From an uncultured Clostridia bacterium (GTDB lineage: Bacteria > Bacillota > Clostridia > TANB77 > CAG-508): 64,000 bases of DNA. The stretch spans positions 9,367 to 73,366 of the forward strand of contig CALXWT010000002.1 in NCBI GenBank assembly GCA_944392445.1, written 5' to 3'. A program made the translations under genes and the position numbers. Positions 6,126 to 60,878 of this stretch are shown here, piece by piece. Within the stretch, counting starts at the first letter, position 1. Each line of letters starts with the position of its first letter. Under the pieces are notes generated by a model. That model made no database searches. It was not told the DNA's origin and was given only the letters and a program-made list of their open reading frames with translations.

Positions 6126-6308
6126 TGTAAACCTAACCTCCTTTGTCCTATGTAATGCTTATTTCCGTAAGTAATTTTTATTTATAGGATTACCTCTTAC
6201 TTTACATTATCATTGTATTACAAGTTTTATTTTAAGTCAAGTACTTTTTTGTAATAATTTGTCTTTTTTGTTACTGTCTAATGTTTTTTGTAAAATTTAG
6301 GTCTTAAA

Positions 6309-6492
6309 CCTAGGTAATATGTATATTTAGAGAATTTTTGCAGTGACGCGTAAGCGACCAAACGAGCTTCTTTGAAGCGAGTGCGATTTGGAGCAAACGA
6401 GCAGAATTAAAAAATTTATTTTTTAACTCTGGTTATATGTTTGCTTTCGCCAAGGAACAAAAAAATTTGATAAATATACATATTACCTAAGG
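6309..6492. mobile_element. MITE-like element, copy 1 (terminal inverted repeats cctaggtaatatgtatattta ... taaatatacatattacctaagg)
   Basis: 184-bp element bounded by roughly 20-bp perfect terminal inverted repeats. It has a GC-rich core (tttgcagtgacgcgtaagcgaccaaacgagc...gcgagtgcgatttggagca) and is repeated at 9085-9284, with partial copies elsewhere. Confidence 0.6.
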
Positions 6493-6507
6493 TTTGTACC
6501 ATATTTC

Positions 6508-8373
6508 TTACTTATCTTTTTTTATTTCTTCATATCGTTTTATTTTCATTGTAGTTGTTTTAACGAAATCATCATGTTTGATTTCCAATTTTTTAATAGC
6601 TTTGTATGAGGTTAATTCTTTGTTTACTTCTTTTACCTTATCCCAAATTATTTTATATACTTCTTCCTCACTTAAATCTTTTCTATATTTTTCTTCTATT
6701 ACCTCATAATTTGGAATAACTTTAGCAGTAATTATTAGCTCTTTTTCTCCTTCTACTTCTTTACCATAAACCATGCATTCTTTTATTTCTGTATGTTTAG
6801 AAAGCATTAGTTCTATTTCTTCTGGATATATGTTTTTTCCGTTTTGTGTTACTATAACATTTTTACTTCTACCTGTTATATACAAGAAACCGTCATTATC
6901 CATATATCCAATGTCTCCCGAGTGGAACCATCTTTCTCCATTTTCTTCAAAAATTGCTTCTTTTGTAGCCTCTTCGTCCTCATAATATCCAAGCATTAAA
7001 GTCTTACTGCAAATTAGTACTTCTCCTTCTCCATTTTCGTTTGGATGGTCTATTCTTAATTTTGCTCCTACTACTGCTTTACCTGCAGAACCAACTTTTG
7101 TTTCAAAATCTGGTGTTAATGCAGCAATCGGTGCAGTTTCTGTTAATCCATATCCTTGTAAGAAAAGTATGCCAATATCTTCTACCCACTTTCCTATTTT
7201 AGCATCTATTGGTGCTGCTGCTGAAACTATTATTCTCAATCTTCCACCTAGATTTTCGTAAATTTCATTAAATACTTTTCTTTTTATATCCACGCCAACT
7301 ACTTTTAGTGCATTTGTTACATGAATCATTGAATTTACTAAACCGTCTTTTTTGCTCTTTTTGATGTTGGCATTTATTTTTCTATATAAGCTTTCAACAA
7401 GTAATGGCACAGTTAATAGTGCTGTTGGTTTTGTTTCTTGCAAGTCTGACACTATATGTTTTAAACCTTGGCACACACTAATAGATGCACCAATTCCGAA
7501 TGGTAGTAAAAATCCTATTGATGATTCATAAGTATGGTGTAATGGTAGTATTGACATTAACCTATCATCTGGTGTAAGTTTAACATATGCAGTTGCTGCA
7601 TTTACGTTTTGTGCTAAATTTCTATTGCATAGCATAACACCTTTTGCATTTGAAGTAGTTCCTGATGTAAATATTAAAACTTTAAACTCGTCAGGATCTA
7701 TTTCAATACTCATAAAACTATTATCTCCACCATTTACCAAAGCTTTTCCTTCTTCTATTAAATAATCTAAACCTACAAATCTTCCGTCTATTTCTTGGTC
7801 AGAATTCATTTGTATAAAATATTTCACATCTGGTAAGTTTTCTGATACTTTTTTTATAACGTCAGCTTTTTTTGTAGAAAATATTACTGCCGATGCTCTA
7901 GCTCTTTTTATAACATTTTCAATTTCATTTTCTGGTAATTCCTTATCTACAGGAACTGCAATTCCTGCACCACAAAGCATTGTCATGTATGATACATACC
8001 AATGGTGTGTGTTTTCTCCTATTATAACAATTCTTGTATCTTTTAAATTTAATTTTCTTGTTAATGCAGTTCCAAGTCCAATTACCTCATTTTTAAACTG
8101 GTTATATGTAATTTCTGTCCAATCACCTTTTGGATTAAATTTTTCTAATAAGAAAGTCCTATCTGCATATTCTTTTGAAGAATTAATAAATATTTCTTTT
8201 ACTGTTTCAAAAGAAGTTCCATCATAATTTTTAGTTCTCTTTTTCTTTTGATTTTCTTCTGCTTTCTTTACTTTTTCGTAATCCACTTTTACTTCATCGA
8301 TTTCATCAAGTTCCTTTAAATGAAACTTTGGAAATTTAAAATTTGGAACTTTAAAATCTTTTAATATTCTCAT
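6508..8373 (-). CDS. fadD: Long-chain fatty-acid--CoA ligase (AMP-binding enzyme family)
   Basis: 621 aa. AMP-binding motif FTSGTTSNAKGVML and C-terminal ...GRSKNVIVTQNGKNIYPEEIE... are present. Confidence 0.85.
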   Translation of the reverse strand: MRILKDFKVPNFKFPKFHLKELDEIDEVKVDYEKVKKAEENQKKKRTKNYDGTSFETVKEIFINSSKEYADRTFLLEKFNPKGDWTEITYNQFKNEVIGLGTALTRKLNLKDTRIVIIGENTHHWYVSYMTMLCGAGIAVPVDKELPENEIENVIKRARASAVIFSTKKADVIKKVSENLPDVKYFIQMNSDQEIDGRFVGLDYLIEEGKALVNGGDNSFMSIEIDPDEFKVLIFTSGTTSNAKGVMLCNRNLAQNVNAATAYVKLTPDDRLMSILPLHHTYESSIGFLLPFGIGASISVCQGLKHIVSDLQETKPTALLTVPLLVESLYRKINANIKKSKKDGLVNSMIHVTNALKVVGVDIKRKVFNEIYENLGGRLRIIVSAAAPIDAKIGKWVEDIGILFLQGYGLTETAPIAALTPDFETKVGSAGKAVVGAKLRIDHPNENGEGEVLICSKTLMLGYYEDEEATKEAIFEENGERWFHSGDIGYMDNDGFLYITGRSKNVIVTQNGKNIYPEEIELMLSKHTEIKECMVYGKEVEGEKELIITAKVIPNYEVIEEKYRKDLSEEEVYKIIWDKVKEVNKELTSYKAIKKLEIKHDDFVKTTTMKIKRYEEIKKDK

Positions 8374-8403: not shown

Positions 8404-8967
8404 CTATGCACGTAACTTCTTAAGAAAAGAATTGTCTACTTCTTCAAAAATTGTTTGTACATCCACTTTATTATGTCTCATTTTATATATATAACTTGAA
8501 CAAGTAAATCCAAATATTCCAGAAGCTATAATATCTGAATCTCTATCTACTATTTCGTTCTTTTGTATCCCCTTTTTTACTATCTCTTCTATCATATATA
8601 TATATTCAAACACATATTTTTTGCATAATTTACTTCTCTCGTCATTGCCCCAAATTTGGCTTAATATTATTGTTATAAAGTTTTCGTATTTGAATAGTAT
8701 TTTTATTTGTATTAAAACTATTGCTCTAATTTTATCTAGTGAATTAGTCATTTTATCTGTTTTAATAGTAATACTGTTTTTTAAAAGCTTCATTCCTTCA
8801 TCAACTAAGAAATTAAAAATTTCTTCTTTGCTTGAAAAATGATAATATAATGTTCCCTTTGCCACACCTACAGTTGCAGTTATTTCTTCTATACTAGTTG
8901 CATCATAACCTTTTTCTGCAAATAGTTGCATTGATGTTTCAAAAATCTTTCTTTTCGTTTTATTCAT
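8404..8967 (-). CDS. TetR/AcrR family transcriptional regulator
   Basis: N-terminal HTH ...IFETSMQLFAEKGYDATSIEEITATVGVAKGTLYYHFSSKEEIF... Confidence 0.85.
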   Translation of the reverse strand: MNKTKRKIFETSMQLFAEKGYDATSIEEITATVGVAKGTLYYHFSSKEEIFNFLVDEGMKLLKNSITIKTDKMTNSLDKIRAIVLIQIKILFKYENFITIILSQIWGNDERSKLCKKYVFEYIYMIEEIVKKGIQKNEIVDRDSDIIASGIFGFTCSSYIYKMRHNKVDVQTIFEEVDNSFLKKLRA

Positions 8968-9084
8968 TTACTTCACCTTTACACAAAAAACTATATTTAT
9001 TATATAATTTATTAGGAAATTATGCAAGTGTTTATTGGATTTTTGACCTTTCGTTCGTTACTAGATAATGGTTTTGTAGGAAAT

Positions 9085-9284
9085 TAGATTCTAAACCTAG
9101 GTAATATGTATATTTAGAGAATTTTTGCAGTGACGCGTAAGCGACCAAACGAGCTTCTTTGAAGCGAGTGCGATTTGGAGCACCTTTCCTGCGATAAAAA
9201 GAAAAATAAATTTTTCTTTTTATCATTAGCAGGGTGCGACATCAAGGAACAAAAAAATTTGATAAATATACATATTACCTAAGG
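9085..9284. mobile_element. MITE-like element, copy 2 (same terminal inverted repeats and GC-rich left core as 6309-6492, different internal segment)
   Basis: The first roughly 95 bp are almost identical to copy 1. The internal part differs and contains a gataaaaagaaaaa/tttttctttttatc hairpin. An outer inverted repeat (tcgttcgttactagataatggtttt ... aaaaccattatctagtaactttcgttcg at 9050-9338) flanks it. Confidence 0.6.
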
Positions 9285-9474
9285 TTTGCATCATATTATT
9301 TTATAAAAACCATTATCTAGTAACTTTCGTTCGCTATACAATAAGAAAAGTTGCTTCGCCTTATGTGCATTTCGCTTCGCGAATATGCACAGCCCAAGGA
9401 AACTTAACCTTGTTGTATAGGAAAAATCGAAGATTTTTCCTATACAATAAAATTAAGCGAGAATACTCTCGCTT

Positions 9475-10476
9475 TTACTTCTTTCCTCTATCCAAAGTAT
9501 CTAAATTATCTAATGCCTTTCCTGTTCCTAAAGCTACGCATGATATTGCTTCCTGTGCAATCATAACATTTATTCCTGTTTTTACTTGCAATAGTTTATC
9601 TAATCCATCTATTAAGCATCCTCCACCTGTCATATATATTCCTCTATCACTTATGTCTGCCGCAAGTTCTGGCGGTGTTTTCTCCAGTACAGAGTGAACA
9701 CTATCTACTATCATCATTGCTGGTTCTATAAGTGCTTCTAACATTTCGCTTGAATGAATAGTTATGTTTTTAGGTAACCCAGTAATTAAGTCTCTTCCTC
9801 TTATTTCCATCTCTGTATCTTGTATTTTTGGGTAAACACAGCCAATATTTATTTTTAAATCTTCGGCCGTTCTTTCTCCTATCATTACATTGTGCTTTCT
9901 TTTTATATATTTTACAATTGCTTCATCAAATTTATCTCCTGCAACTTTTAAAGACTCACTAACTACAGAACCTCCTAAAGATATAACTGCAATGTCTGTT
10001 GTACCTCCACCAATATCTACTACCATATTTCCGCATGGCTTAGATATATCTATTCCAGCACCTATAGCAGCTGCAATAGGTTCTTCTATTAAGAATACTT
10101 TTCTTGCTCCTGCTTGTGAAGCTGCATCTATAACAGCCTTTTTTTCTACCTCAGTTACTTGTGATGGGATGCATATCATTATTCGTGGAGAGAACACAAA
10201 TTTACCGCATATTTTATTTATAAAATATTTTAACATTTTTTCTGTAACTGTATAATTTGAAATTACTCCATCCCTTAAAGGTCTTGTTGCTACAATATTT
10301 CCTGGTGTTCTACCAAGCATTCTTCTAGCTTCTTTTCCCACAGCTAAAACCTCACCTGTATTGTTATCTACTGCAACAACAGAAGGTTCTCTTAATACTA
10401 TACCCTTTCCTTTTACATACGCAATTACAGTTGCAGTTCCCAAATCTATGCCTATGTCTTGTCCCAACTTAAACAT
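9475..10476 (-). CDS. mreB: Rod-shape-determining protein MreB/Mbl (actin homolog); start moved to second Met
   Basis: MFKLGQDIGIDLGTATVIAYV... is preceded by RBS AAAGGAAAG. The first ATG of the track ORF has no RBS. Confidence 0.9.
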   Translation of the reverse strand: MFKLGQDIGIDLGTATVIAYVKGKGIVLREPSVVAVDNNTGEVLAVGKEARRMLGRTPGNIVATRPLRDGVISNYTVTEKMLKYFINKICGKFVFSPRIMICIPSQVTEVEKKAVIDAASQAGARKVFLIEEPIAAAIGAGIDISKPCGNMVVDIGGGTTDIAVISLGGSVVSESLKVAGDKFDEAIVKYIKRKHNVMIGERTAEDLKINIGCVYPKIQDTEMEIRGRDLITGLPKNITIHSSEMLEALIEPAMMIVDSVHSVLEKTPPELAADISDRGIYMTGGGCLIDGLDKLLQVKTGINVMIAQEAISCVALGTGKALDNLDTLDRGKK

Positions 10477-11938: not shown

Positions 11939-12002
11939 ACAAATTTTTGATATTTTTATTTTTTTCCACTTGCTTGTAACAATTTACTGCTTTAAGAATA
12001 AG

Positions 12003-12151
12003 CAAAGGATGTATATTTTAATTTTTTATTGGAGTGCTTAAGGTGGGGACCGACAAGTTTACAAACTGTTAAACGAATCGTAAGTGAAGTTTTTACAGTT
12101 TGTACGTAGTTGGGGGCCGGAAATAAAAAATTAAAATATACATCCTTTGCC
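12003..12151. repeat. Palindromic element, family 2: 26-bp perfect inverted repeats flanking a GC-rich core (ggtggggaccgacaagtttacaaactgt ... tttgtacgtagttgggggccgg)
   Basis: gcaaaggatgtatattttaatttttt at 12003-12028 is reverse-complemented at 12126-12151. The core recurs at 42113-42245 (about 85% identity) and partially at 24521-24550. Confidence 0.55.
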
Positions 12152-12176
12152 AAAATAAAGCAGTAAATTGTTACCT

Positions 12177-17446: not shown

Positions 17447-17599
17447 TATTTTTCCTCTTCTTTTATGTTTGTAATATTAAAAGTTTACAAACCTTATATT
17501 TTATACATTGTAAGTATTATAAACACTACACTATAATAATACCATTTTTTGTACAATATTTCAACATTTATATGGTATGGACTAAGATTTTTTGTTACT

Positions 17600-17680
17600 A
17601 GATATTGTTTTCGTAGAAATTTTGGTTCTAAATCTAGGTAATATGTATAAGCTTATTAAAAAAACATTATCTAGTAACAA
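17600..17680. repeat. Short variant of the MITE-like family (outer inverted repeat gttactagata ... tatctagtaac enclosing ctaggtaatatgtata)
   Basis: Shares the ttctaaa(t/c)ctaggtaatatgtata end and the outer gttactagata inverted repeat seen around copy 2. Confidence 0.4.
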
Positions 17681-19039: not shown

Positions 19040-19095
19040 TGCTGTATAATGTTTTGTAGAAATTTATATTCTAAACGTAGGTAATATGTATATTT
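19040..19095. repeat. Partial copy of the MITE-like family left end (ttttgtagaaattt...ttctaaacgtaggtaatatgtatattta)
   Basis: Matches the left terminus and flank of the 9085 copy. There is no right end. Confidence 0.4.
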
Positions 19096-19102
19096 ATCAA
19101 AT

Positions 19103-19131
19103 TTGACACATTTTCAAAAATATAGTAATAT
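19103..19131 (+). promoter_or_regulatory. Consensus sigma-A promoter TTGACA-17-TAATAT for the glmS leader
   Basis: Read directly. It lies about 65 nt upstream of the ribozyme cleavage site. Confidence 0.55.
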
Positions 19132-19196
19132 ACTATCTATAACTTTAAGAATAGCTTTACAAATAATTAAATTCTTAAGGAAAGGAGTTTTATTTT

Positions 19197-19400
19197 TTAG
19201 CGCCTGGACACAGAGTTAAGCAATGCAAATAATAGATTTGTTGTAATTCTGCTAGCTTTTAGCAAAGTTCAAAGCACCTGTGTTGACGAGGTAGAGACTT
19301 ATCGAAAGATTCGGCGGATGGTCTCTTGGTACTAGATTACTACCATAAATATTAGTCAAAACCTTGCAGTGATGCAAGTATACAAAGCTAATAGAGTAGT
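19197..19400 (+). ncRNA. glmS ribozyme (GlcN6P-dependent self-cleaving riboswitch) in the glmS 5' UTR
   Basis: A^GCGCCTGGAC at the cleavage site. The conserved core gacgaggtagagacttatcgaaagattcggcggatggtctc closely matches the Bacillus glmS ribozyme core GACGAGGATGGAGGTTATCGAATTTTCGGCGGATGCCTCC. It sits directly upstream of glmS. The end coordinate is approximate. Confidence 0.85.
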
Positions 19401-19564
19401 CTTTATTTGTAATGCTTTCTTGAAATTAAATGCTAAGAAAAGCAATCTACACGCAATAATATGAATAATTATTAGCATAGTTTTATAGTTTTTTAGCACA
19501 AAAATGTGTAACTTATTAAAGTTTATTTAATAAAGGTACATATATGTTTTAAGGAGGTATTTTT

Positions 19565-22181: not shown

Positions 22182-22245
22182 CCTCCTATTTTCATAAACT
22201 AATTATTACCATTATATGCAGTTACTGTAAAATTATTCGTTATAA

Positions 22246-22305
22246 ATTAAGTGTGTTATGTGTGTTAAATAAGCTAAAATTTTACACACATAATACACTT
22301 AATTT
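22246..22305. repeat. 18-bp inverted repeat (taagtgtgttatgtgtgt ... acacacataatacactta) in the divergent yaaL/serS intergenic region
   Basis: Read directly. One mismatch, 18-bp spacer. It is a candidate operator or bidirectional hairpin. Confidence 0.5.
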
Positions 22306-22485
22306 AGCAATAATTTTAAGCCTTATGCCAATTTTTCTTGATTTTTCCATAAAAAAATGATACTATACTTACATATATGTTTACAGTTTAAGATAAATAA
22401 AATAATATTAAACTTGTTATAAAGGTGATATTATATAATAATAAAATTATTTAAAAGCATACAAATGCTTTAGTTGGAGGTTTAT

Positions 22486-23775: not shown

Positions 23776-23905
23776 AGTGCGTGGACAAGAGGGACTACTG
23801 CCTTTTTGTCCACACTTTTGCTTAATTTTTCTTTATAATAATAAAATATTTATTACTTCATAAGTTTGTGGACAAAAAGGCAGTAGTCCCTCTTGTCCAC
23901 GCATT
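23776..23905. repeat. Paired-hairpin (REP/MITE-like) element, family 3: two GTGGACAAAAGG-loop-CCTTTTGTCCAC hairpins in inverted orientation flanking a roughly 50-bp AT-rich spacer
   Basis: gcgtggacaagagggactactgcctttttgtccacac ... gtggacaaaaaggcagtagtccctcttgtccacgc. The same architecture recurs at 27033-27145 and 43497-43600. Confidence 0.6.
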
Positions 23906-27016: not shown

Positions 27017-27032
27017 AAAATCTCCCTCTCTT

Positions 27033-27145
27033 TTAGTGTGGACAAAGGGACTACTGCCTTTTGTCCACACTTTCTAACTATAAAATTATTGATTACTTAC
27101 TTTAATCCGTGGACAAAAGGCAGTAGTCCCTTTTGTCCACACTAA
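27033..27145. repeat. Paired-hairpin element, family 3, copy 2
   Basis: agtgtggacaaagggactactgccttttgtccacact ... ccgtggacaaaaggcagtagtcccttttgtccacact. It lies between rnj and gltX. Confidence 0.6.
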
Positions 27146-29112
27146 ACTTCCATTATTATTGGAAGTATCATCGGATTACGTTTTGTTCTTTGGAATATAT
27201 AGTCTCTAAGGTCATCTTTTAATGTTGATTTTATTGTTGACCAATCTCTTACTCCCTCTTCTTCAAAAGTTCTTACTTCTTGTTTTATAACTCTTTTTAC
27301 GTCATCCATTAAAGTTTCAGATTCTCTAACATATACAAATCCTCTAGATACAACGTCTGGTCCTGACACGATTTCTCCTGTAGAACTATCCATTGTCATA
27401 ACTATTACTATTAATCCATCTTGTGATAAATGTTGTCTATCTCTTAATACTATGTTTCCAACATCTCCAACTCCTAAACCATCTACTAGTATTTTTCCTG
27501 ATGGAACTGAAGTTGTTATTTTAGCTTCTTTTTTGTTTAGTTCTAGTGTTTTTCCGTTTTCTAGTATAAATATATTTTCTGCTGGAATTCCCATTTCTTT
27601 GGCTGTTTCTGCATGTGCTCTTAGTTGTCTATATTCACCATGAACTGGCATAAAGTATTTTGGTTTTGCAAGTGAAATTATTAGTTTTTGCTCTTCTTGG
27701 CAAGCGTGTCCTGATACGTGAACATTTTCTAATGCACTATATATAACTTCTGCGCCAATTTGCATTAAGTCGTTTATTACATTTGATACCAATTTTTCGT
27801 TTCCTGGAATTGGAGTAGCAGAAATTATTACCATATCATTAGGAGTAATAACTACTTTTTTATGCTCTCCTGCTGCCATTCTTGTCAGTGCAGACATTGT
27901 TTCCCCTTGACTTCCTGTTGTTATTATTACTAATTGGTCATCTGTATAATTTTTTATCATATCTATGTCTATAAACATGTTCTCTGGTGCATCAATGTAA
28001 CCTATTTCTCTAGCAGTTTCAATCATGTTTATCATGCTTCTACCGCATACAGCTATTTTCCTACCATATTTTTCAGCAGAATTAACTATTTGTTGCACTC
28101 TGTGTACGTTCGAAGCAAAGGTTGCTACCACTATTCTTTTCTTATTATTTTGGAATAATCTATCAAACACATCTCCTATAGTTTTTTCTGACATAGTATA
28201 GCCTTTTCTTTCAGAGTTTGTACTATCTGACATTAGTGCTAATACTCCTTTGTTGCCAAGTTCAGCAATTCTTCCTAGGTCCATTATTTTGTCGTCTATT
28301 GGTGTAAAATCTACTTTAAAGTCTCCAGTGTGTAATACTACACCTACTGGTGTATGTATTGCAAGCATTACAGAGTCTGGTATACTATGGCTACTTCTAA
28401 TAAATTCTACTTTTATATTTCCAAAGTTTATAGTTTGTCCTTGTTCTACTGTAACTAGTTTTGTAGAAGCAAGTAATTTGTGCTCTTCTAGTTTGTTTTT
28501 TATTAGTCCTACTGTTAACCTAGTAGCATAAATTGGTATATTTATTTGCTTTAGCACATATGGAATTGCACCTATATGGTCTTCGTGTCCGTGTGTTACT
28601 ACTAAACCTTTTATTTTATCCTTATTTTTCTCTAAATATGTTACATCTGGTATTACTAAGTCTACACCTAACATATCATCTTCTGGGAATTCTAGTCCAC
28701 AGTCTACTAAAACTATTTCGTTTCCATATTCAAATACTGTTATATTTTTTCCTATTTCGTCTAATCCACCAAGTGGTATAATTTTTAAATTATCTTTTTT
28801 AAATTCAAATTTAGGTGTATTACCTCTTTTCTTTGATTCCATTCTTCTTGGTAGTTCTTCTCTTATTTCATTTGGGTTTTGTCTGTTTCCAACTTTCACT
28901 TCTTTTTCGCTAGGTTTGGTCTCATTTCTTAATTTTCTTTCATTATAGTTATTCTCGTTTCTTGTTTCCTTTCTAGTATGTCTATTTTCATTTTTTACTT
29001 CTTTTTTATTAGTTTGCCCTTCTTCTTTTTTACTATTTCTCCTAGGCATTCTTCTTTTTTTTGTTTCTGTTTTTACAAAAACTGTTTTCTCCATTGTATC
29101 ATTGTTCTCCAT
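27142..29112 (-). CDS. rnj: Ribonuclease J (beta-CASP metallo-beta-lactamase) with a roughly 100-aa basic N-terminal extension
   Basis: ...KIIPLGGLDEIGKNITVFEY... and the HGHEDHIGA motif identify the beta-CASP and C-terminal domains. The N-terminal K/R/E/N-rich region is low-complexity. Confidence 0.9.
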   Translation of the reverse strand: MENNDTMEKTVFVKTETKKRRMPRRNSKKEEGQTNKKEVKNENRHTRKETRNENNYNERKLRNETKPSEKEVKVGNRQNPNEIREELPRRMESKKRGNTPKFEFKKDNLKIIPLGGLDEIGKNITVFEYGNEIVLVDCGLEFPEDDMLGVDLVIPDVTYLEKNKDKIKGLVVTHGHEDHIGAIPYVLKQINIPIYATRLTVGLIKNKLEEHKLLASTKLVTVEQGQTINFGNIKVEFIRSSHSIPDSVMLAIHTPVGVVLHTGDFKVDFTPIDDKIMDLGRIAELGNKGVLALMSDSTNSERKGYTMSEKTIGDVFDRLFQNNKKRIVVATFASNVHRVQQIVNSAEKYGRKIAVCGRSMINMIETAREIGYIDAPENMFIDIDMIKNYTDDQLVIITTGSQGETMSALTRMAAGEHKKVVITPNDMVIISATPIPGNEKLVSNVINDLMQIGAEVIYSALENVHVSGHACQEEQKLIISLAKPKYFMPVHGEYRQLRAHAETAKEMGIPAENIFILENGKTLELNKKEAKITTSVPSGKILVDGLGVGDVGNIVLRDRQHLSQDGLIVIVMTMDSSTGEIVSGPDVVSRGFVYVRESETLMDDVKRVIKQEVRTFEEEGVRDWSTIKSTLKDDLRDYIFQRTKRNPMILPIIMEV

Positions 29113-30550: not shown

Positions 30551-30608
30551 CTAGTTAATATGTATATTTAGAAAATTTTTGCAGTGACTCGTAAGCAACC
30601 AAAAAAGC
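30551..30608. repeat. Partial MITE-like copy (left terminus plus start of the GC-rich core)
   Basis: ctagttaatatgtatatttagaaaatttttgcagtgactcgtaagcaacca matches the copy-1 left half with a few substitutions. Confidence 0.4.
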
Positions 30609-42053: not shown

Positions 42054-42112
42054 AAACTCATCAGCCTCCTATAATTTTATTATATGACGGAGGTTTTATT
42101 TAAGACTAAGTG

Positions 42113-42245
42113 AAGTGTGTATTTTTTACTTTGGGTTTACGTTCCCCCAACATCGCACAGACTGTACAAACTTCTTTTTTACAATTTGTAAGCTTGTCGG
42201 TCCCCACCTTAAGAACTTCAACCCAAAGTAAAAAATACAGATGTT
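42113..42245. repeat. Palindromic element family 2, copy 2 (terminal inverted repeats gtattttttactttgggtt / aacccaaagtaaaaaatac; core ggtggggaccgacaagcttacaaattgt...gtttgtacagtctgtgcgatgttggggg, opposite orientation)
   Basis: The core is about 85% identical to 12040-12125 in reverse complement. Different terminal inverted repeats bound it. Confidence 0.5.
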
Positions 42246-42269
42246 GCTCGGTCTTGATTAAAATAGATA

Positions 42270-43496: not shown

Positions 43497-43600
43497 CGTG
43501 GACAAAAGGGTCATTCCTTTTTGTCCACATTTATTTTTGCATATTCTTTTTTCAGTTCACTATTTAATCGTGTGAACAAAAGGCAGTAGTCCCTTTGTCC
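43497..43600. repeat. Paired-hairpin element, family 3, copy 3 (more degenerate)
   Basis: cgtggacaaaagggtcattcctttttgtccacat ... cgtgtgaacaaaaggcagtagtccctttgtccatgg. It overlaps the 3' end of the ppa ORF. Confidence 0.55.
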
Positions 43601-44130
43601 ATGGTTGCAAATTTTTCGTCATATTTTTTCATACATTTTTCTATTATCTTTTCTGCTTCTTCTCTTCCAAGCATTCTGTCAACTGTAGTTGTTTTTCCTT
43701 CTAGTTGTTTATACACCTCAAAGAAATGCTTTATTTCGTCTGAAATATGGTTTGGAAGTGCAGATATATCATTATATACATTTAAGTATGGGTCTCTTTT
43801 AGAAATAGCAATTATTTTTTCATCCTCTTCACCACTATCATTCATTATTAAAACTCCTATTGGATAGCATTCAACTAGAGTTAGTGGTACTATTTGCTCA
43901 TTACATAAGATTAATACATCCAATGGGTCATTATCTTCTGCGTAAGTGCGTGGAATAAAGCCATAATTTGTTGGATAATGTGTTGATGTGTATAGAACCC
44001 TATCTAGTTTTAACATTCCTGTTTCTTTATCAAGTTCGTATTTTACTTCTCCTCTTTTTGGTATTTCCACAACTCCTATAAAGTCTGTTTTTGTTATTCT
44101 TTCTTTACTTATATCGTGCCAAATGTTCAT
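43564..44130 (-). CDS. ppa: Inorganic pyrophosphatase (family I)
   Basis: ...YPTNYGFIPRTYAEDNDPLDVLIL... is the family I signature. Confidence 0.9.
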   Translation of the reverse strand: MNIWHDISKERITKTDFIGVVEIPKRGEVKYELDKETGMLKLDRVLYTSTHYPTNYGFIPRTYAEDNDPLDVLILCNEQIVPLTLVECYPIGVLIMNDSGEEDEKIIAISKRDPYLNVYNDISALPNHISDEIKHFFEVYKQLEGKTTTVDRMLGREEAEKIIEKCMKKYDEKFATMDKGTTAFCSHD

Positions 44131-44261: not shown

Positions 44262-44400
44262 TGTTACAATATAATGGTTTTATGCTGTATAATTTAAATC
44301 GACATATTTGAAATACTTTTTTTAGAAGTTTACTCTACCCATATAAACAGATAACAAGAATTATTTAAATTATATAGCATAAAACCATTATATTGTAACC
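44262..44400. repeat. Single-copy 38-bp inverted repeat element (ttgttacaatataatggttttatgctgtataatttaaat ... atttaaattatatagcataaaaccattatattgtaacc) with roughly 60-bp spacer
   Basis: Read directly. It lies in the ppa upstream region. Confidence 0.5.
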
Positions 44401-55366: not shown

Positions 55367-55828
55367 TCATCTTTTAATAAACAAACTCTTTATCTTATTT
55401 AATATTCTTTTAAAGATATTCTCTTTATATTCTACAATTTGTTTTTCATTATTATTTGTCTTTACTTCATTCTCATTTAATTTTGTTGTTTTGTTTATGC
55501 TTTTATTTGCAAATACATCAGTATTATACATCTGCTGTTTTTTTAGTTCGTTTTTCTGTCTCGCTTCATTTTGCATTTTTATAATTTTCGTTCTTTGCTC
55601 TGGTGTTGCTAGATAATCTCTAAACAAATTAAATAGTATTGCTTTTGTTTCTGGAAGCATTGGTTGGTCTTTTAATTCTAATTCATCATCTAAGAAATAC
55701 TCATATTCCTTATTTCTGTTAGTATCTAATGTTTCTATTACTTCGGGAGGAATTTTATTGTACTCTTCTTCATCTAAATCTTGCAAAATTGTATAAACTT
55801 CTGTATATGCATTTCTACGGTTGTTCAC
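55367..55828 (-). CDS. Hypothetical protein (153 aa) immediately downstream of, and overlapping, the giant helicase gene
   Basis: Clean ORF. A 5' remnant of a paralog sits after the second helicase gene (61800-61936). Confidence 0.5.
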   Translation of the reverse strand: MNNRRNAYTEVYTILQDLDEEEYNKIPPEVIETLDTNRNKEYEYFLDDELELKDQPMLPETKAILFNLFRDYLATPEQRTKIIKMQNEARQKNELKKQQMYNTDVFANKSINKTTKLNENEVKTNNNEKQIVEYKENIFKRILNKIKSLFIKR

Positions 55829-58800
55829 CTATATCCTCCCCTCTCTTTTGTTCTCTTTGCTTTACTAATTCTTGTAATTCTGTATATGCTCTATCTGCAT
55901 TTTCCTGGTCTGTTAATGAACTAATTGAAGCTTCTACTATTTCTTTTGCTGTGCGATTTCTTTTTGGTTTTGGCTCTATTCCATATTGTCTCAATGTAGC
56001 TATTTTTTCTCTGTATTCTTCTGGTACATTTTCTATTGGTTTCCCTACATATTCTTGTAATATTTTATATTCGTTTGATTTTATCCACCTATTGTACAAA
56101 TTCACTTCTTCTTTTTGCTCTTCGGTCATTTGGTCTACTGTTAAGTTTTTCCTTTTTCCATTTTCTCCTTTTTCAGAGAAAGCACCTTTCATTATTCGTC
56201 CATTTGCTTCTATAAATTCTATTACCTGTTCATATGTTGTTTTTTTCGGTTCTAATCCATGGTCTCTCAATGTTGCTATTTTTTCTCTATATTCTTCTGG
56301 CACATTTTCTATTGGTTGCCCTGCATATTCTTGCAATATTTTATATTCGTCTGAAATATGCCACCTTTTGCACAACTTTGCTTCTTTTTTTTGCTCTTCG
56401 GTCATTTGATCTCTTGTTAATTGTTTCCTTTTTCCATTTTCTCCTTTCTCATAGAAAGCACTGTTCACTATTCGTCCATGTTCTTCTATAAATTCTATTA
56501 CCTGTTCATATATTGGTTTTTCTGGTTCTAAGCCATATTGCCTCAATGTAGCTATTTTTTCTCTGTATTCTTCTGGCACATTTTCTATTGGTTGCCCTGC
56601 ATATTCTTGCAATATTTTATATTCGTTTGAGTTCAGCCACCTTTTGTACAATCTTACTTCTTCTTTTTGCTCTTCGGTCATTTGGTCTACTGTTAATTTT
56701 TTTCTTTTTCCATTTTCTTCTTTTTCAGAGAAATAGCCGTTCATTATTCGTCCATTTGCTTCTATAAATTCTATTACCTGTTCATATATTGGCTTTTCTG
56801 GTTCCAATCCATATTCTCTTAATATAGTTATTTTGTCTCTGTATTCTTCTGGCACATTTTCTATCGATTGTCCTGCATATTCTTGCAATATTTTATATTC
56901 GCCTGAATGAATCCACCTTTTGTACAATCTTGCTTCTTCTTTTTGCTCTTCGGTCATTTGGTCTACTGTTAATTGTTTCATTTTTCCATCTTCTCCTTTT
57001 TCAGAGAAATAGCTTTTCATTATTCGTCCATTTGCTTCTATAAATTCTATTACCTGTTCATATGTTGGTTTTTCTGGTTCTAAGCCATATTGCCTCAATG
57101 TAGCTATTTTTTCTCTGTATTCTTCTGGCACATTTTCTATAGGTTGCCCTGCATATTCTTGCAATATTTTATATTCGTCTGATTTATACCACCTAGCATA
57201 TAAATTTACTTCTTCTTTTTGCTCGTCAGTCATTTGGTCTACTACTAATCTTTTGCCATCTATTTTGAATGAACTTCTCATTATTTGCCCATGTTTTTTT
57301 ATAAATTCTATTACCTGTTCATATGTTGTCTTTTTCGGTTTACCATCAACTTCATCTTCTAACTCCACAAAATCTTTCAATAGCCCTATAAGTTCAAATG
57401 GTCCAACACTTTTTCCTGAAAAAACTCTTTCTTGTGTTTCTCCACTCCTTACTATTCTGTCTGGTAAATCTATCTGCCATAAATCTATTTGACTTCCTAG
57501 TCTTATTATTTGCTCTATCTCTTCTACTTGCTTTTCATTTAATCCTTCAAATTCTTGTTCTAAATATCCTTTGTATTTATTTTGTATTTCTTTTAATACT
57601 CTCGCATATCCTGTTTCTTCTTTATCTGTGCTATTTATGTCTGGTAAAACTCCATCATGTCTTTGCGTCCAATCTAATATAAGACCTAACATTTGTATGT
57701 CGTCTTTCTCTGTTATTTCATTATCCCAATTTACTTTTATTGTGTTGTTTACTAAGTCTATTACTACTGGCCTATCCTCATCTTTTGTTGGTTTATCTGG
57801 GTTTTCTGAATATATTACTCTTCCTAGTTGTTGCAAGTATAGTATTCGTGAATTTTCATCTAGTGGTCTTAGCCATATTATTCCATCTAGCTTATCTAAA
57901 TGTAACCCTTCATTTGCTTTATTCATCACTAGCATAAATTCTGTTTCTTCTGTATTGCTATTTTTGAATTCTTCTAACCTTCTAGCATTTTCTTTGTCTC
58001 CATATTCTCCAAGCATTGAATGAAAATTAGGCTTTATCCCTGAACCTTTAAAGTATTCTGCTATTTGTTTTTCATAATCTTCTATTTTTGTTTTTCCTTT
58101 TTTTCTTCCTATTACATTTCCATCTTCATCTTCCAAATCTTCTAAAACCGGTAAAAATACTATATATTTGCCACCTTTTTTCACATTTGCTTGTAGAATT
58201 TGAGGTATTCCCTCTGCATTTTCTACATTTCTTCTCAAAGACTCATATTCTTCTAATTTTTCGTTTCTATCTTGTATATCTTCTAATTGGTCTATTTTAT
58301 CTTTTAATTCATCTAAACTTCCATCCATCTTTAAACTATATGCGCAACTTACAAGCTTAGGATTTACCACTAACCCCATTCTTATTGCATTTGTTAAACT
58401 CATATTCATTGCAATGTGTTTTCCATTTACTGCTTCTCTATTTGTGTAACCTAGCCTTTGTGCTATTTCATTTGCCATATCTATTCCGTCTGCATCTCTT
58501 CTTGGGGTTGCTGTTAGTCCTAATACTTTCGTACTTTCTGGTTGATTATCTAGTAATGTGTTTAATCTATCTCCCCATTCTTTTGCTCCTGTTCTATGTA
58601 ACTCATCTAGTACTACAAAGCCATATTGTTTGTTTATTGTGGCTTTTCCACCTCTTGCAAGTAAACTCGAGTATGTTGCAAATTTTAGTTTTGGAAATAC
58701 ATCTTTTATTATATCATCTTTACTTCTTCGAATTGTATTTACTGGTCCGTGAATATATTTTATAATATTGTCTTTCATTTGCTCTAATATCTCATTTTGT

Positions 58801-60878
58801 GGTGCTAAGTATAATATTTCTTCATTTTGGTGTTCCATCATTTCGGCTAAAGCAACAAAACTCTTTCCTCCACCTGTTGGTACTATTACTGATGTAAATC
58901 TGTTTTCTTGCAATATTTCATCTGCTCTGTCTTTTGCTCTTTGTTGGTATGGTCGTAGTTGTATTCCTGTTCCTTGTACATCATAATATCCTAAAAATCT
59001 TTCTATTCTCTCTATTGATAAATTTTGACTATAGATTGATTCATTTTGTATTTGTCTATTTTTACTTATGTTTTCTTCATTTATGCCTCTTGTATTTCTT
59101 GCATCATCTCTATTTCCAGTTTGTCTATTATTTTCACCAATACTATTAACATATTCTGCTATCATTCTGTCATATTGTTCTAATCTTTTTGCTTTTACTG
59201 TTTCTGGTGTGTCATTTTCGGTAATTTCAAAATCATTACTTCTTGTTACCATATTTAGTAGAATTGTTGGAATAGCTTCTCTTGTGATGCCTTGTGCTTC
59301 TAATTTTTGATATAGCTCTACACAATATTCTGCTTGTATACGGTTAATTAAGTTATTCCTTTCTGCTGGTGTAAATTCTTCTATTCCTATTTTTGACCAG
59401 TCATATAGTGAAAATATTGCTTCTGCATAATATTCTTCTTTGCTTATTTGCTCATTTCTTTGTGTTTTTGAAAATGTGCTACTCATTATATCTCTTACAT
59501 TTGATAGCCCACCATTTTCCATTATTTCTATTTGCTCTGCTTCTGTTAAGTCTTTTATTTTGTTTATTAGTTCTGCTTCTTCTCCTCTTAAATCCAATGA
59601 AATTGACTCACTAAGTTTAACTCCCCTATTGCTTTGCCTTGTAAGTATTTCTGGCTCTATTCTAAAACCATTGTCTGATATATATTGTATAATTTCTCTG
59701 TATCTTGGATTATTTCCTGTTATTTGCTCCAATATTCTTGCTAGTTCTTTTGCATTTGACTGCGACCTTGCTAAATAGAACAAATTCTTTACTATCGAAT
59801 TTGCTTGTCCATATTCCACTTTTCCGTCTGTTAAGTTATACATTTCTTCTATGCTTATGTTGTCTCGTAAGCTATATTCTCTTTCAAGTATGCTGTTTGC
59901 TGGTATTTCTATTGTTGCATCTGTTCCAGCTATTCCTATTGTTTTACCTTCACTCGCGAAGTTAATTACTTCTTTTTTTAGATCATCTACTATCTGCCTA
60001 TCTTGCCCATCAACCTGTTGCAATAGTGCAAATATATCTACTATTTCTTTTGGTACATCTATTATCTCGTCTCCTTCTATATCTCCATAGTGAACTACCT
60101 CTAATGATGAAAACGCATTTCCTATTGTTTGCACCAATAAATTATTATTTGCTGTATGTGGAATTACAGGCGCCATTCCTCCTACTCTTTCAAGCAATGT
60201 TAGTTTTGCAATTATCTTATTCTTCTCTAATGATTGTTCCCCGTTTAATGCTTGATAACTACTAATTCTCGCAATTGGTGCCCTATATGTTATTCCTTTT
60301 CTTAATTTTGCTTTACTTGGGTCTATTGGCTCTGCTGATGTATACCTTGTCTCTATTGCTCTTTTTAATTCTTCTTCTGTTTTACTATTATCTATTTCAC
60401 TTAGTGTTTCTTTCAATTTGCTATCAGCTGGCATTAAAGAAATGTATTCTTCTATTCTCTTTGCCACTTCTTCTAGCATATATTGCCCTGCATTTATGGT
60501 CTTTTCGCCCAATTCTCTTTTTGGCACTTTTACCATTATATATCTATCTTTATAACTTCCTCTTCCATAGGAAATAGACACATTACTATTGCTTGAAAGT
60601 GATATACAGTTTGTATCCTTTCTGTAATGCATCTTTATGTGGTCATATACTTGCTCTAAACTTATTTCTGAATCTTTATTATATTTTGGTGCTTCATTTT
60701 CTGGTTTTTCTTCATATCTTTCTCTATCTGTTCTTATTCGTGCAATATTTCCGTTTTCATCTAGCACTGTTCCGTTTTCTATATCTTCATTATCTGCCAT
60801 ATTTAGTGCACGAATAAAGTAATAGTTTTCTTCATCTTCTATTATATTAAAATTTTCTATACCTAATACATTTTCCAT
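55815..60878 (-). CDS. Giant (1687 aa) multidomain protein: roughly 600-aa N-terminal region of unknown function, central SF2 DExH helicase, and six C-terminal ~92-aa tandem repeats (helicase-associated-domain-like)
   Basis: Helicase motifs VPTGGGKSF (I), VVLDELHR (II), LGLTATP (III) and QQLGRV (VI) are present. Six in-frame repeats of TYEQVIEFIEANGRIM...EYAGQPIENVPEEYREKIATLRQYGLEPEKP follow. Confidence 0.8.
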   Translation of the reverse strand: MENVLGIENFNIIEDEENYYFIRALNMADNEDIENGTVLDENGNIARIRTDRERYEEKPENEAPKYNKDSEISLEQVYDHIKMHYRKDTNCISLSSNSNVSISYGRGSYKDRYIMVKVPKRELGEKTINAGQYMLEEVAKRIEEYISLMPADSKLKETLSEIDNSKTEEELKRAIETRYTSAEPIDPSKAKLRKGITYRAPIARISSYQALNGEQSLEKNKIIAKLTLLERVGGMAPVIPHTANNNLLVQTIGNAFSSLEVVHYGDIEGDEIIDVPKEIVDIFALLQQVDGQDRQIVDDLKKEVINFASEGKTIGIAGTDATIEIPANSILEREYSLRDNISIEEMYNLTDGKVEYGQANSIVKNLFYLARSQSNAKELARILEQITGNNPRYREIIQYISDNGFRIEPEILTRQSNRGVKLSESISLDLRGEEAELINKIKDLTEAEQIEIMENGGLSNVRDIMSSTFSKTQRNEQISKEEYYAEAIFSLYDWSKIGIEEFTPAERNNLINRIQAEYCVELYQKLEAQGITREAIPTILLNMVTRSNDFEITENDTPETVKAKRLEQYDRMIAEYVNSIGENNRQTGNRDDARNTRGINEENISKNRQIQNESIYSQNLSIERIERFLGYYDVQGTGIQLRPYQQRAKDRADEILQENRFTSVIVPTGGGKSFVALAEMMEHQNEEILYLAPQNEILEQMKDNIIKYIHGPVNTIRRSKDDIIKDVFPKLKFATYSSLLARGGKATINKQYGFVVLDELHRTGAKEWGDRLNTLLDNQPESTKVLGLTATPRRDADGIDMANEIAQRLGYTNREAVNGKHIAMNMSLTNAIRMGLVVNPKLVSCAYSLKMDGSLDELKDKIDQLEDIQDRNEKLEEYESLRRNVENAEGIPQILQANVKKGGKYIVFLPVLEDLEDEDGNVIGRKKGKTKIEDYEKQIAEYFKGSGIKPNFHSMLGEYGDKENARRLEEFKNSNTEETEFMLVMNKANEGLHLDKLDGIIWLRPLDENSRILYLQQLGRVIYSENPDKPTKDEDRPVVIDLVNNTIKVNWDNEITEKDDIQMLGLILDWTQRHDGVLPDINSTDKEETGYARVLKEIQNKYKGYLEQEFEGLNEKQVEEIEQIIRLGSQIDLWQIDLPDRIVRSGETQERVFSGKSVGPFELIGLLKDFVELEDEVDGKPKKTTYEQVIEFIKKHGQIMRSSFKIDGKRLVVDQMTDEQKEEVNLYARWYKSDEYKILQEYAGQPIENVPEEYREKIATLRQYGLEPEKPTYEQVIEFIEANGRIMKSYFSEKGEDGKMKQLTVDQMTEEQKEEARLYKRWIHSGEYKILQEYAGQSIENVPEEYRDKITILREYGLEPEKPIYEQVIEFIEANGRIMNGYFSEKEENGKRKKLTVDQMTEEQKEEVRLYKRWLNSNEYKILQEYAGQPIENVPEEYREKIATLRQYGLEPEKPIYEQVIEFIEEHGRIVNSAFYEKGENGKRKQLTRDQMTEEQKKEAKLCKRWHISDEYKILQEYAGQPIENVPEEYREKIATLRDHGLEPKKTTYEQVIEFIEANGRIMKGAFSEKGENGKRKNLTVDQMTEEQKEEVNLYNRWIKSNEYKILQEYVGKPIENVPEEYREKIATLRQYGIEPKPKRNRTAKEIVEASISSLTDQENADRAYTELQELVKQREQKRGEDIGEQP
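55960..57340. repeat. In-frame tandem array, about 276 bp x 6, within the giant helicase gene
   Basis: ctattacctgttcatat recurs near 56221, 56491, 56771, 57041 and 57311. Protein repeats are 85-95% identical. Confidence 0.8.

Follow-up and report, generated by a model that had tools for sequence, protein, structure and literature searches.

The repeats dispersed between the genes of this 64-kb stretch of clostridial DNA, which is referred to below as the window, very probably belong to a MITE, a non-autonomous DNA transposon whose full length is about 268 bp and for which a DDE-type transposase acting in trans is the most likely agent of movement. The MITE family is genuine, recently active, and apparently undescribed: its copies insert with an 8-bp target-site duplication, vary in presence between strains, have spread through several genomes, decay by internal deletion, and have no coding capacity, as they contain only short open reading frames (ORFs) that are not conserved between copies, and no ORF conserved among the copies was found. 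An earlier note, made from the window alone, had described a MITE-like mobile repeat, and that description is correct, with the family present in several genomes, target-site duplications at its ends, an unoccupied site in related strains, and no match in Rfam.

Both full copies that the earlier note had located, at 6309–6492 and 9085–9284, were borne out on reading the sequence, and so were three partial copies, which lie at 17594–17678, 19041–19104, and 30551–30608. The 21-nt repeat CCTAGGTAATATGTATATTTA has six matches in the window at three mismatches or fewer (at 6309, 6471 on the minus strand, 9096, 9263 on the minus strand, 19076, and 30550), against 0.01 expected from shuffled sequences, and the two full copies hold in common an identical GC-rich core of 59 nt (6337–6395 = 9124–9182), for which the chance expectation is 0. 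This core had been singled out as striking for a low-GC genome, and it is indeed unusual in a window that averages 27–33% GC; the right halves of the two copies do differ, since they contain two different central hairpins. When an nhmmer profile was built from the full copies, it recovered exactly the five sites already known in the window and no others (6270–6517, 9057–9323, 17594–17649, 19041–19104, and 30551–30608). The claim that all copies are intergenic does not strictly hold, because the right end of the copy at 6270–6514 completes a 621-aa gene at 6508–8373.

The complete element has a nested organization, the coordinates of which are collected in Table 1. From the outside inward, it consists of an outer arm, a non-complementary spacer of ~17 nt, and an inner inverted repeat of 34–45 nt, inside which lie the asymmetric GC-rich core and then a long AT-rich hairpin closed by GCA...TGC; after the central hairpin come a short junction (GACAC or TTTCGC), CCAAGGAAC, and a run of seven A residues. 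The passenger module enclosed by the terminal arms measures ~155 nt. The termini, GTTAC...GTAAC, are situated on each side ~38 bp outside the 20-bp repeat of the earlier note and are themselves flanked by the 8-bp duplication. Between the two sides, the subterminal spacers of ~17 nt differ consistently, left from right, so that the ends may be non-equivalent. This layout revises the original description of perfect terminal inverted repeats of ~20 bp: the repeat in question is real, but its arms match at 20 of 21 positions (CCTAGG vs CCTTAGG) and are therefore not perfect, and its position is inner or subterminal, as the true ends are marked by the outer repeat, whose 19-nt arms finish at the insertion boundaries set by the unoccupied site. 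The inner repeat is also longer than the 20 bp first proposed and reaches ~34–45 nt. No direct repeats were found flanking it when the inner module was considered as a separate nested MITE. In the copy at 6270–6514, the inner repeat arms occupy 6306–6339 and 6461–6494, the core occupies 6337–6395, and a candidate duplication, TCTTTTTT, is found at 6262–6269 and 6515–6522.

Table 1. Positions in the window of the MITE copies, their constituent parts, and a related element
Feature	Position	Strand	Basis or remark
Complete MITE copy, 268 bp, family A, central hairpin type alpha	9057..9324	+	nhmmer full-length match; precisely missing from strain contigs L020 and L021
Outer (true terminal) inverted repeat, left arm, GTTACTAGATAATGGTTTT	9057..9075	+	19 nt, 100% complementary to 9306-9324
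Outer terminal inverted repeat, right arm, AAAACCATTATCTAGTAAC	9306..9324	-	Complement of 9057-9075
Target-site duplication, left copy, 8 bp, TTTCGTTC	9049..9056	.	Sequence read directly; single in L020 unoccupied site
Target-site duplication, right copy, 8 bp, TTTCGTTC	9325..9332	.	Sequence read and strain alignment
Inner inverted repeat, left arm; holds the repeat of the earlier note at 9096-9116	9082..9126	+	
Inner inverted repeat, right arm; holds the repeat of the earlier note at 9263-9283	9253..9297	-	
Conserved asymmetric GC-rich core with small hairpin GCTTC-TTT-GAAGC, GA/GA on its flanks	9124..9182	+	Identical in both full window copies
Central long AT-rich hairpin, type alpha	9180..9237	+	Hairpin sequence differs in other copies, position unchanged
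Second copy, central hairpin type beta (6393-6444), degenerate outer ends	about 6270..6514	+	nhmmer and inverted-repeat search
Copy with internal deletion, 85 bp; both outer ends and left arm retained, core missing	17594..17678	+	
Solo left arm: degenerate outer end and complete inner-repeat left arm, cut off shortly before the glmS promoter and ribozyme	19041..19104	+	
Truncated inner module: left inner arm and first 38 nt of core, without outer arm	30551..30608	+	
137-bp relative, near-identical termini GTTACAATATAATGGTTTT, unrelated interior	44263..44399	+	7/8 flanking duplication CTTTATTT / CTTAATTT

Insertion of the complete copy can be read from contigs L020 and L021, which are 94–99% identical to the window at the nucleotide level. 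The spacer between mreB and the TetR-family gene is 126 nt long in these contigs, as against 507 nt in the window; their unoccupied site reads ...TATAGC GAACGAAA GGTC..., with one copy of the octamer, while the occupied site in the window reads ...GC GAACGAAA (GTTAC...268 bp...GTAAC) GAACGAAA GGTC..., with two. The check for target-site duplications that the earlier note had advised therefore yielded both the duplications and an unoccupied site with a single octamer. Among 13 copies with readable ends, perfect 8/8 duplications occur at six independent insertions (w9096, L002, L009, L016, L017, and L010a), and their sequences are six different ones (TTTCGTTC, CACTTATT, TACTAAAC, TATAAACT, TTTTTTAT, and ATATAATT); of the remaining copies, two match at 7/8 positions, two at 6/8, and one at 5/8, and no duplication was recognizable in two full, old-looking copies (L006 and L019). 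Both full window copies are missing from the commonest lineages of the species (L045–L047 and L037–L044, with 98% and 96% protein identity, respectively) and from the sister species (L022–L026; 91% protein identity), and the copy at 6270–6514 is present in L020. Insertion with duplication, polymorphism, and spread are together the standard marks of a MITE, which is why the family is assigned to this class. The fixed length of the duplication leads us to infer a transposase of the DDE type, and it is solely from the duplication that both the enzyme and its family are proposed.

The family is not confined to a single genome. An exact-pattern scan of one genome per species detected 12 loci in four species-representative metagenome-assembled genomes (MAGs), namely the uncultured Clostridia BRZ_DL bin12, BRZ_LR bin51, and BRZ_HM bin72, plus one "Bacilli" bin, the element-bearing contig of which is identical to a bin51 contig. 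When metagenomes were scanned with the 21-mer of highest conservation, three further real copies emerged, on three contigs; a fourth match was discarded as a chance occurrence inside a coding region. Profile searches of the same loci revealed extra copies, including one inserted into the arm of another copy, and brought the number in the loci of BRZ_DL bin12 to at least nine, with five in the 64-kb window. The copies sit in unrelated gene contexts in several genomes, and the loci compared between the window species and bin12 have no orthologous genes in common. The host species (the window itself corresponds to ENA scaffold ONAT22-1_SAMEA6814623 scaffold_444) is common in public assemblies, as gauged by homologues of the 621-aa AMP-binding protein encoded next to the element. 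The arms vary among copies, both in the outer repeat (GTTACTAGATAATGG vs GTTACTGTTTAGTGTAG) and in the inner repeat (CCTAGGTAATA, GTCTTAGTAGTA, and AAATCCAGAATAGA). In subfamily B, the outer arms, inner arms, and central hairpin are all different, yet the tips are still GTTAC...GTAAC and the core is nearly unchanged, and a third kind of arm is found in the copy at 2539–2731 of L005.

Several loci record how individual copies decay. At 17594, strains L027, L033, and L034 carry an allele that is 114–115 nt longer and includes the core; in the window allele, the stretch between two TGTATA direct repeats is gone, and in the longer allele the central hairpin is in turn missing through a deletion between two GTGCGA repeats, so that the short copy is, to judge from these alleles, a recent internal deletion. 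The copy at 30551 is truncated in the window, but in the orthologous BRZ_LR contig (L007; 95% identical flank) the core is intact as far as that contig extends. At the 6270 locus, which the window and L020 share, 7 of 238 element positions (2.9%) differ between them, two of these in the core, as do 5 of 144 positions (3.5%) of the flanking spacer. With the core diverging as fast as the flanking spacer, single insertions look neutral, although the numbers are small and come from one orthologous locus. The same insertion touches the end of the adjacent AMP-binding gene (window 6500–6524), whose last codons and stop, GAT AAG TAA, come from the degenerate right end of the element. In lineages without the element (L045 and L037), this site reads GAT AAG TAG, followed by a 20-nt remnant, GTTATGCATTTTCGACTTCT (window plus strand), which sits between the duplicated target sequence, and the sister species has the undisturbed ...AAAGACAAATAA; the 3' end of the gene looks like the product of an old insertion, subsequent repair of the C-terminus, and later deletion. 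The solo arm at 19041–19104 stops 10 nt before a promoter-like site, TTGACA-17-TAATAT, which precedes a glmS ribozyme (Rfam RF00234, 89 bits, 19188–19403) and then the glmS gene.

The conservation of the family is inverted with respect to ordinary MITEs, in that the GC-rich center exceeds the arms in conservation. In 16 copies from at least four genomes, and across subfamilies, the 3' two-thirds of the core (CCAAACGAGCTT...AAGCGAGTGCGATTTGGAGCA) is invariant or nearly so, a pattern which hints that the core does something. Since single loci seem to drift, it is at the level of source copies that this conservation must operate: propagation may depend on the core, or the core may have been exchanged recently among all subfamilies. 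A protein-coding role was set aside, as the 64-aa ORF of the 9096 copy is not common to the 6309 copy, and a 28-aa frame in the common core is disrupted non-conservatively by a compensatory variant of the small hairpin.

In that variant, GCTTC-TTT-GAAGC is replaced by GCTTT-GTA-AAAGC. Both strands of the element fold far better than shuffled versions (z about -8.5), a result dominated by the inverted repeats. Across the 16 copies, 98% of cells pair and changes on both sides are seen in 16 pairs, compared with 5.6 in shuffles, none of 500 of which reached 16, whereas register-shifted controls pair at 33–53% only. The inner arms change together (CATGTAAT with ATTACATG, TTAAT with ATTAA, and GGTTATATG with CATATAACC); read from the alignment, such concerted change shows that pairing matters or else that the arms correct each other. 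The central hairpin has three unrelated sequences at one position, which are freely combined with two junction variants. The covariation analysis suggested in the earlier note thus finds covarying stems, but these fit RNA and single-stranded or cruciform DNA alike and cannot separate the two. We likewise rejected a strand call from the ratio of G-U to A-C pairs, as the excess of 27 vs 5 rests on a few doubtful columns and shrinks to 5 vs 4 in the clean stem.

The most likely of the alternatives is that the 155-nt module is a functional structured RNA, either the gene of a small RNA or an element working in cis (for instance a one-directional terminator or insulator, or an RNase III substrate), which the MITE spreads and whose action on neighboring genes would account for the conservation of both core and orientation; we regard this as unlikely. 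Across subfamilies and genomes the core hardly varies although the arms do, and the stems covary well beyond the shuffled controls, but DNA inverted repeats would covary with or without an RNA, and the G-U excess over A-C comes from the doubtful columns just mentioned. A hairpin capped by GUAA and a tandem G-A/A-G motif beside the GCUUC hairpin are formed on the core strand only, and the GUAA hairpin is not retained in subfamily B. The orientation relative to genes and the more T-rich tail that follows the stem on the core strand, both described below, would also suit an RNA; against them stand the orthologous locus at which the core diverges as fast as its flanks and the deletion or truncation of copies in some strains despite near-identical flanking sequence. 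Rfam (version 15) gives no match to the element at the gathering score anywhere in the window and, over 8950–9500, nothing but weak hairpin-type noise at E ≤ 10, so the element does not belong to any Rfam family, as the earlier note had allowed that its core might. In a consensus scan, no promoter or canonical terminator was detected inside the element, its left arm included, and the mreB terminator and the promoter of the TetR-family gene fall outside it. Neither a promoter and terminator of its own nor, at the orthologous locus compared between the window and L020, above-neutral conservation, the features that would mark an independent small-RNA gene, was found.

The orientation of the copies is strikingly uniform. 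All 10 of 10 independent insertions between co-directional genes have the same orientation, with the core strand antisense to the genes, and the insertions other than these ten lie between convergent or divergent genes. The symmetric tips should permit either orientation, and this bias is therefore one for which a transposon with symmetric ends requires an extra assumption; selection after insertion is the one that we infer. A mechanism of insertion linked to the direction of replication is the alternative reason. The five copies of the window all point the same way, in DNA of uniform GC skew, but the window genes and the GC skew run in the same direction, so the window cannot separate orientation linked to transcription from orientation linked to replication. 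The two strands also differ in what follows the inner stem: the first 8 nt, summed over 15 copies, contain 66 T residues on the core strand vs 42 on the other, and the T-rich tract on the core strand is very marked in bin12.

A link between orientation and strand or replication, together with the extensive nested hairpins, is what would be explained if the element were a hairpin-dependent repeat moved as single-stranded DNA by HUH/Y1 enzymes (REP/BIME with RAYT, or an IS200/IS605 derivative), and the single orientation of the five window copies on their uniformly skewed stretch fits this. REP/BIME and IS200/IS605-type elements, however, insert without target duplication and lack terminal inverted repeats, and the fixed 8-bp duplications of varied sequence and the clean unoccupied site described here largely refute the idea, which, with no Y1 transposase seen nearby, we consider highly improbable. 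The idea that the copies arose by segmental duplication on a local scale or by chance in AT-rich intergenic DNA, as might be imagined from only two full window copies placed 2.8 kb apart, is refuted by the 0.01 and 0 matches expected from shuffles, the unrelated gene contexts in several genomes, and the strain-level presence and absence with duplications, and its probability is negligible.

Taking the repeats as a MITE mobilized in trans, the following course of events can be proposed. A DDE-type transposase would make 8-bp staggered cuts in AT-rich intergenic DNA, acting in trans on the 19-bp terminal inverted repeat (5'-GTTACTAGATAATGGTTTT), the arms of which enclose a passenger module of ~155 nt. 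A second long inverted repeat closes the domain of this module, in which the asymmetric, conserved GC-rich core is accompanied by a long AT-rich hairpin of a sequence that is interchangeable between copies. Individual insertions would be neutral passengers, and conservation of the core would stem from selection acting on active source copies, or from recent descent from these, and not from a function at each locus. The strict antisense orientation would result from selection against the other orientation, for which one possible reason is that the giant inner hairpin and more U-rich tract of the core strand would act as a polar terminator on downstream genes. More speculatively, and in our estimation improbably, the 155-nt module could be an undescribed structured nucleic-acid element that is spread by several MITE backbones, either as a strand-specific RNA or as a cis-acting DNA or RNA structure serving its own mobilization. 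Any strand-specific RNA activity may be that of a one-directional terminator or insulator or of a processing site, and activity of the module would explain both the greater conservation of the center over the ends and the 10/10 orientation.

No autonomous element or transposase with matching ends was found in the window, in ~300 kb of loci, in viral contigs, or in plasmids. Neither the core nor the outer repeat gave an exact-pattern match in the viral contigs, plasmids searched by BLAST with the element or its left arm yielded either nothing or chance matches of 25–30 nt only, and no long-range inverted repeats enclosing an ORF were found in the window. Three candidates were set aside. Weak outer-repeat matches at 55605 and 58543 are chance occurrences inside a 1687-aa ORF, and the 142-aa ORF that follows a solo arm in L002 does not, by eye, look like a transposase. 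The third is an IS110-family transposase gene of the sister species (L022 9398–10681; DEDD_Tnp_IS110, Transposase_20), which lies ~2.5 kb downstream of the syntenic region and is missing from another contig of that species, L023; the IS110 family makes no target duplication and is thereby rejected as the parent. Duplications of 8 bp are also generated by ISL3, IS256, IS66, and IS1595, and the ends of IS66 start with GTAA, to which the GTTAC termini of the present family do not correspond. The IS6/IS26 family, including a long clostridial group (ISCpe7, ISCbo1), is another with an 8-bp target duplication (PMC6807381); the long IS6-like group has clostridial hosts on record and ends that rarely begin with GG (PMC6807381), but the GTTAC termini have no match to the IS6 consensus GGTTCTGTTGCAAA (PMC6807381). 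Families with 8-bp duplications, the long clostridial IS6-like elements among them, are candidate parents as a lead only.

Comparison with known bacterial repeats helps to place the family. Like the Correia elements of Neisseria and the RUP elements of Streptococcus pneumoniae, its members are short (100–300 bp), non-coding, dispersed, and mostly intergenic, with terminal inverted repeats, a target duplication of fixed length, variation between strains, and a long hairpin if transcribed. Correia and RUP elements, however, duplicate TA, whereas this family duplicates 8 bp, has its most conserved part at the center and not at the ends, and contains a further long inverted repeat within its terminal pair. 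Mobile insertion cassettes of the MIC231 type, known from the Bacillus cereus group, resemble it in that ends recognized by a transposase surround cargo unrelated to transposition, and the same ends around different interiors can be seen in the window on comparing 9057–9324 with 44263–44399; those cassettes, though, have protein-coding passengers between IS231 ends and make duplications of 10–12 bp, while the cargo here is a non-coding structured module of 155 nt. The ERIC/IRU and BOX repeats are likewise imperfect palindromes with interchangeable internal modules, and they are transcribed with neighboring genes, with effects of orientation and on RNA stability having been reported. To our knowledge, they have no clear terminal repeats with target duplications and no demonstrated transposition footprint, in contrast to the present family, which has both.

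The window and its relatives contain other repeats besides the MITE. Adjoining the 9096 copy, at 9334–9450, is a member of a second, unrelated family with a GTGCATTTCGCTTCGCGAATATGCAC...CCCAAGGAAAC...TTGTATAGGAAAAATC hairpin, consisting of a 106-bp segment between 11-bp direct repeats, CTATACAATAA (9334–9344 and 9440–9450); it is missing from L020, which keeps one copy of the 11-mer, and the family is also found beside family-A elements in L005 and L010. At 11976–12174 lies a third nested-repeat element of the same design, with the outer repeat GTAACAATTTACTGCTTTA, an inner repeat with GGATGTATATTTTAATTTTTTATT, and a different GC-rich core, GGAGTGCTTAAGGTGGGGACCGAC...GTTGGGGGCCGG; it is present in L020 and in part in MAG bin12 (L002 3566–3614), and the sister species has other sequence at the site. 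A palindromic intergenic family, GTGGACAAAAGGCAGTAGTCCC..., with arms of 25–37 nt that are 100% complementary, occurs at 23778–23903, 27032–27146, and 43578–43603, and two long imperfect intergenic palindromes unrelated to the MITE family lie at 42094–42263 (51-nt arms, 78% complementarity) and 22243–22306 (28-nt arms, 93% complementarity). Tandem repeats of 276 nt (five copies, 55931–57334) and 282 nt (three copies, 62008–62853), with 69–88% identity, are located in large minus-strand ORFs of 1687 aa (55815–60878) and at least 690 aa (61923–63995), and the blocks that flank them are duplicated 5.6 kb apart; these ORFs probably encode paralogous repeat-containing surface proteins.

For the family as it occurs in this uncultured low-GC Clostridia species, the analysis provides exact ends, a duplication length, and strain-level insertion polymorphisms, and these polymorphisms can be used as strain markers and explain contig breaks in MAGs. 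The conserved center and the strict orientation go beyond what is routine for such repeats, yet they do not, as yet, amount to a new kind of system. Should these two features stem from a strand-specific activity of the cargo, the family would show, in nature, a transposon that distributes an RNA module of regulatory or structural kind across a small genome.
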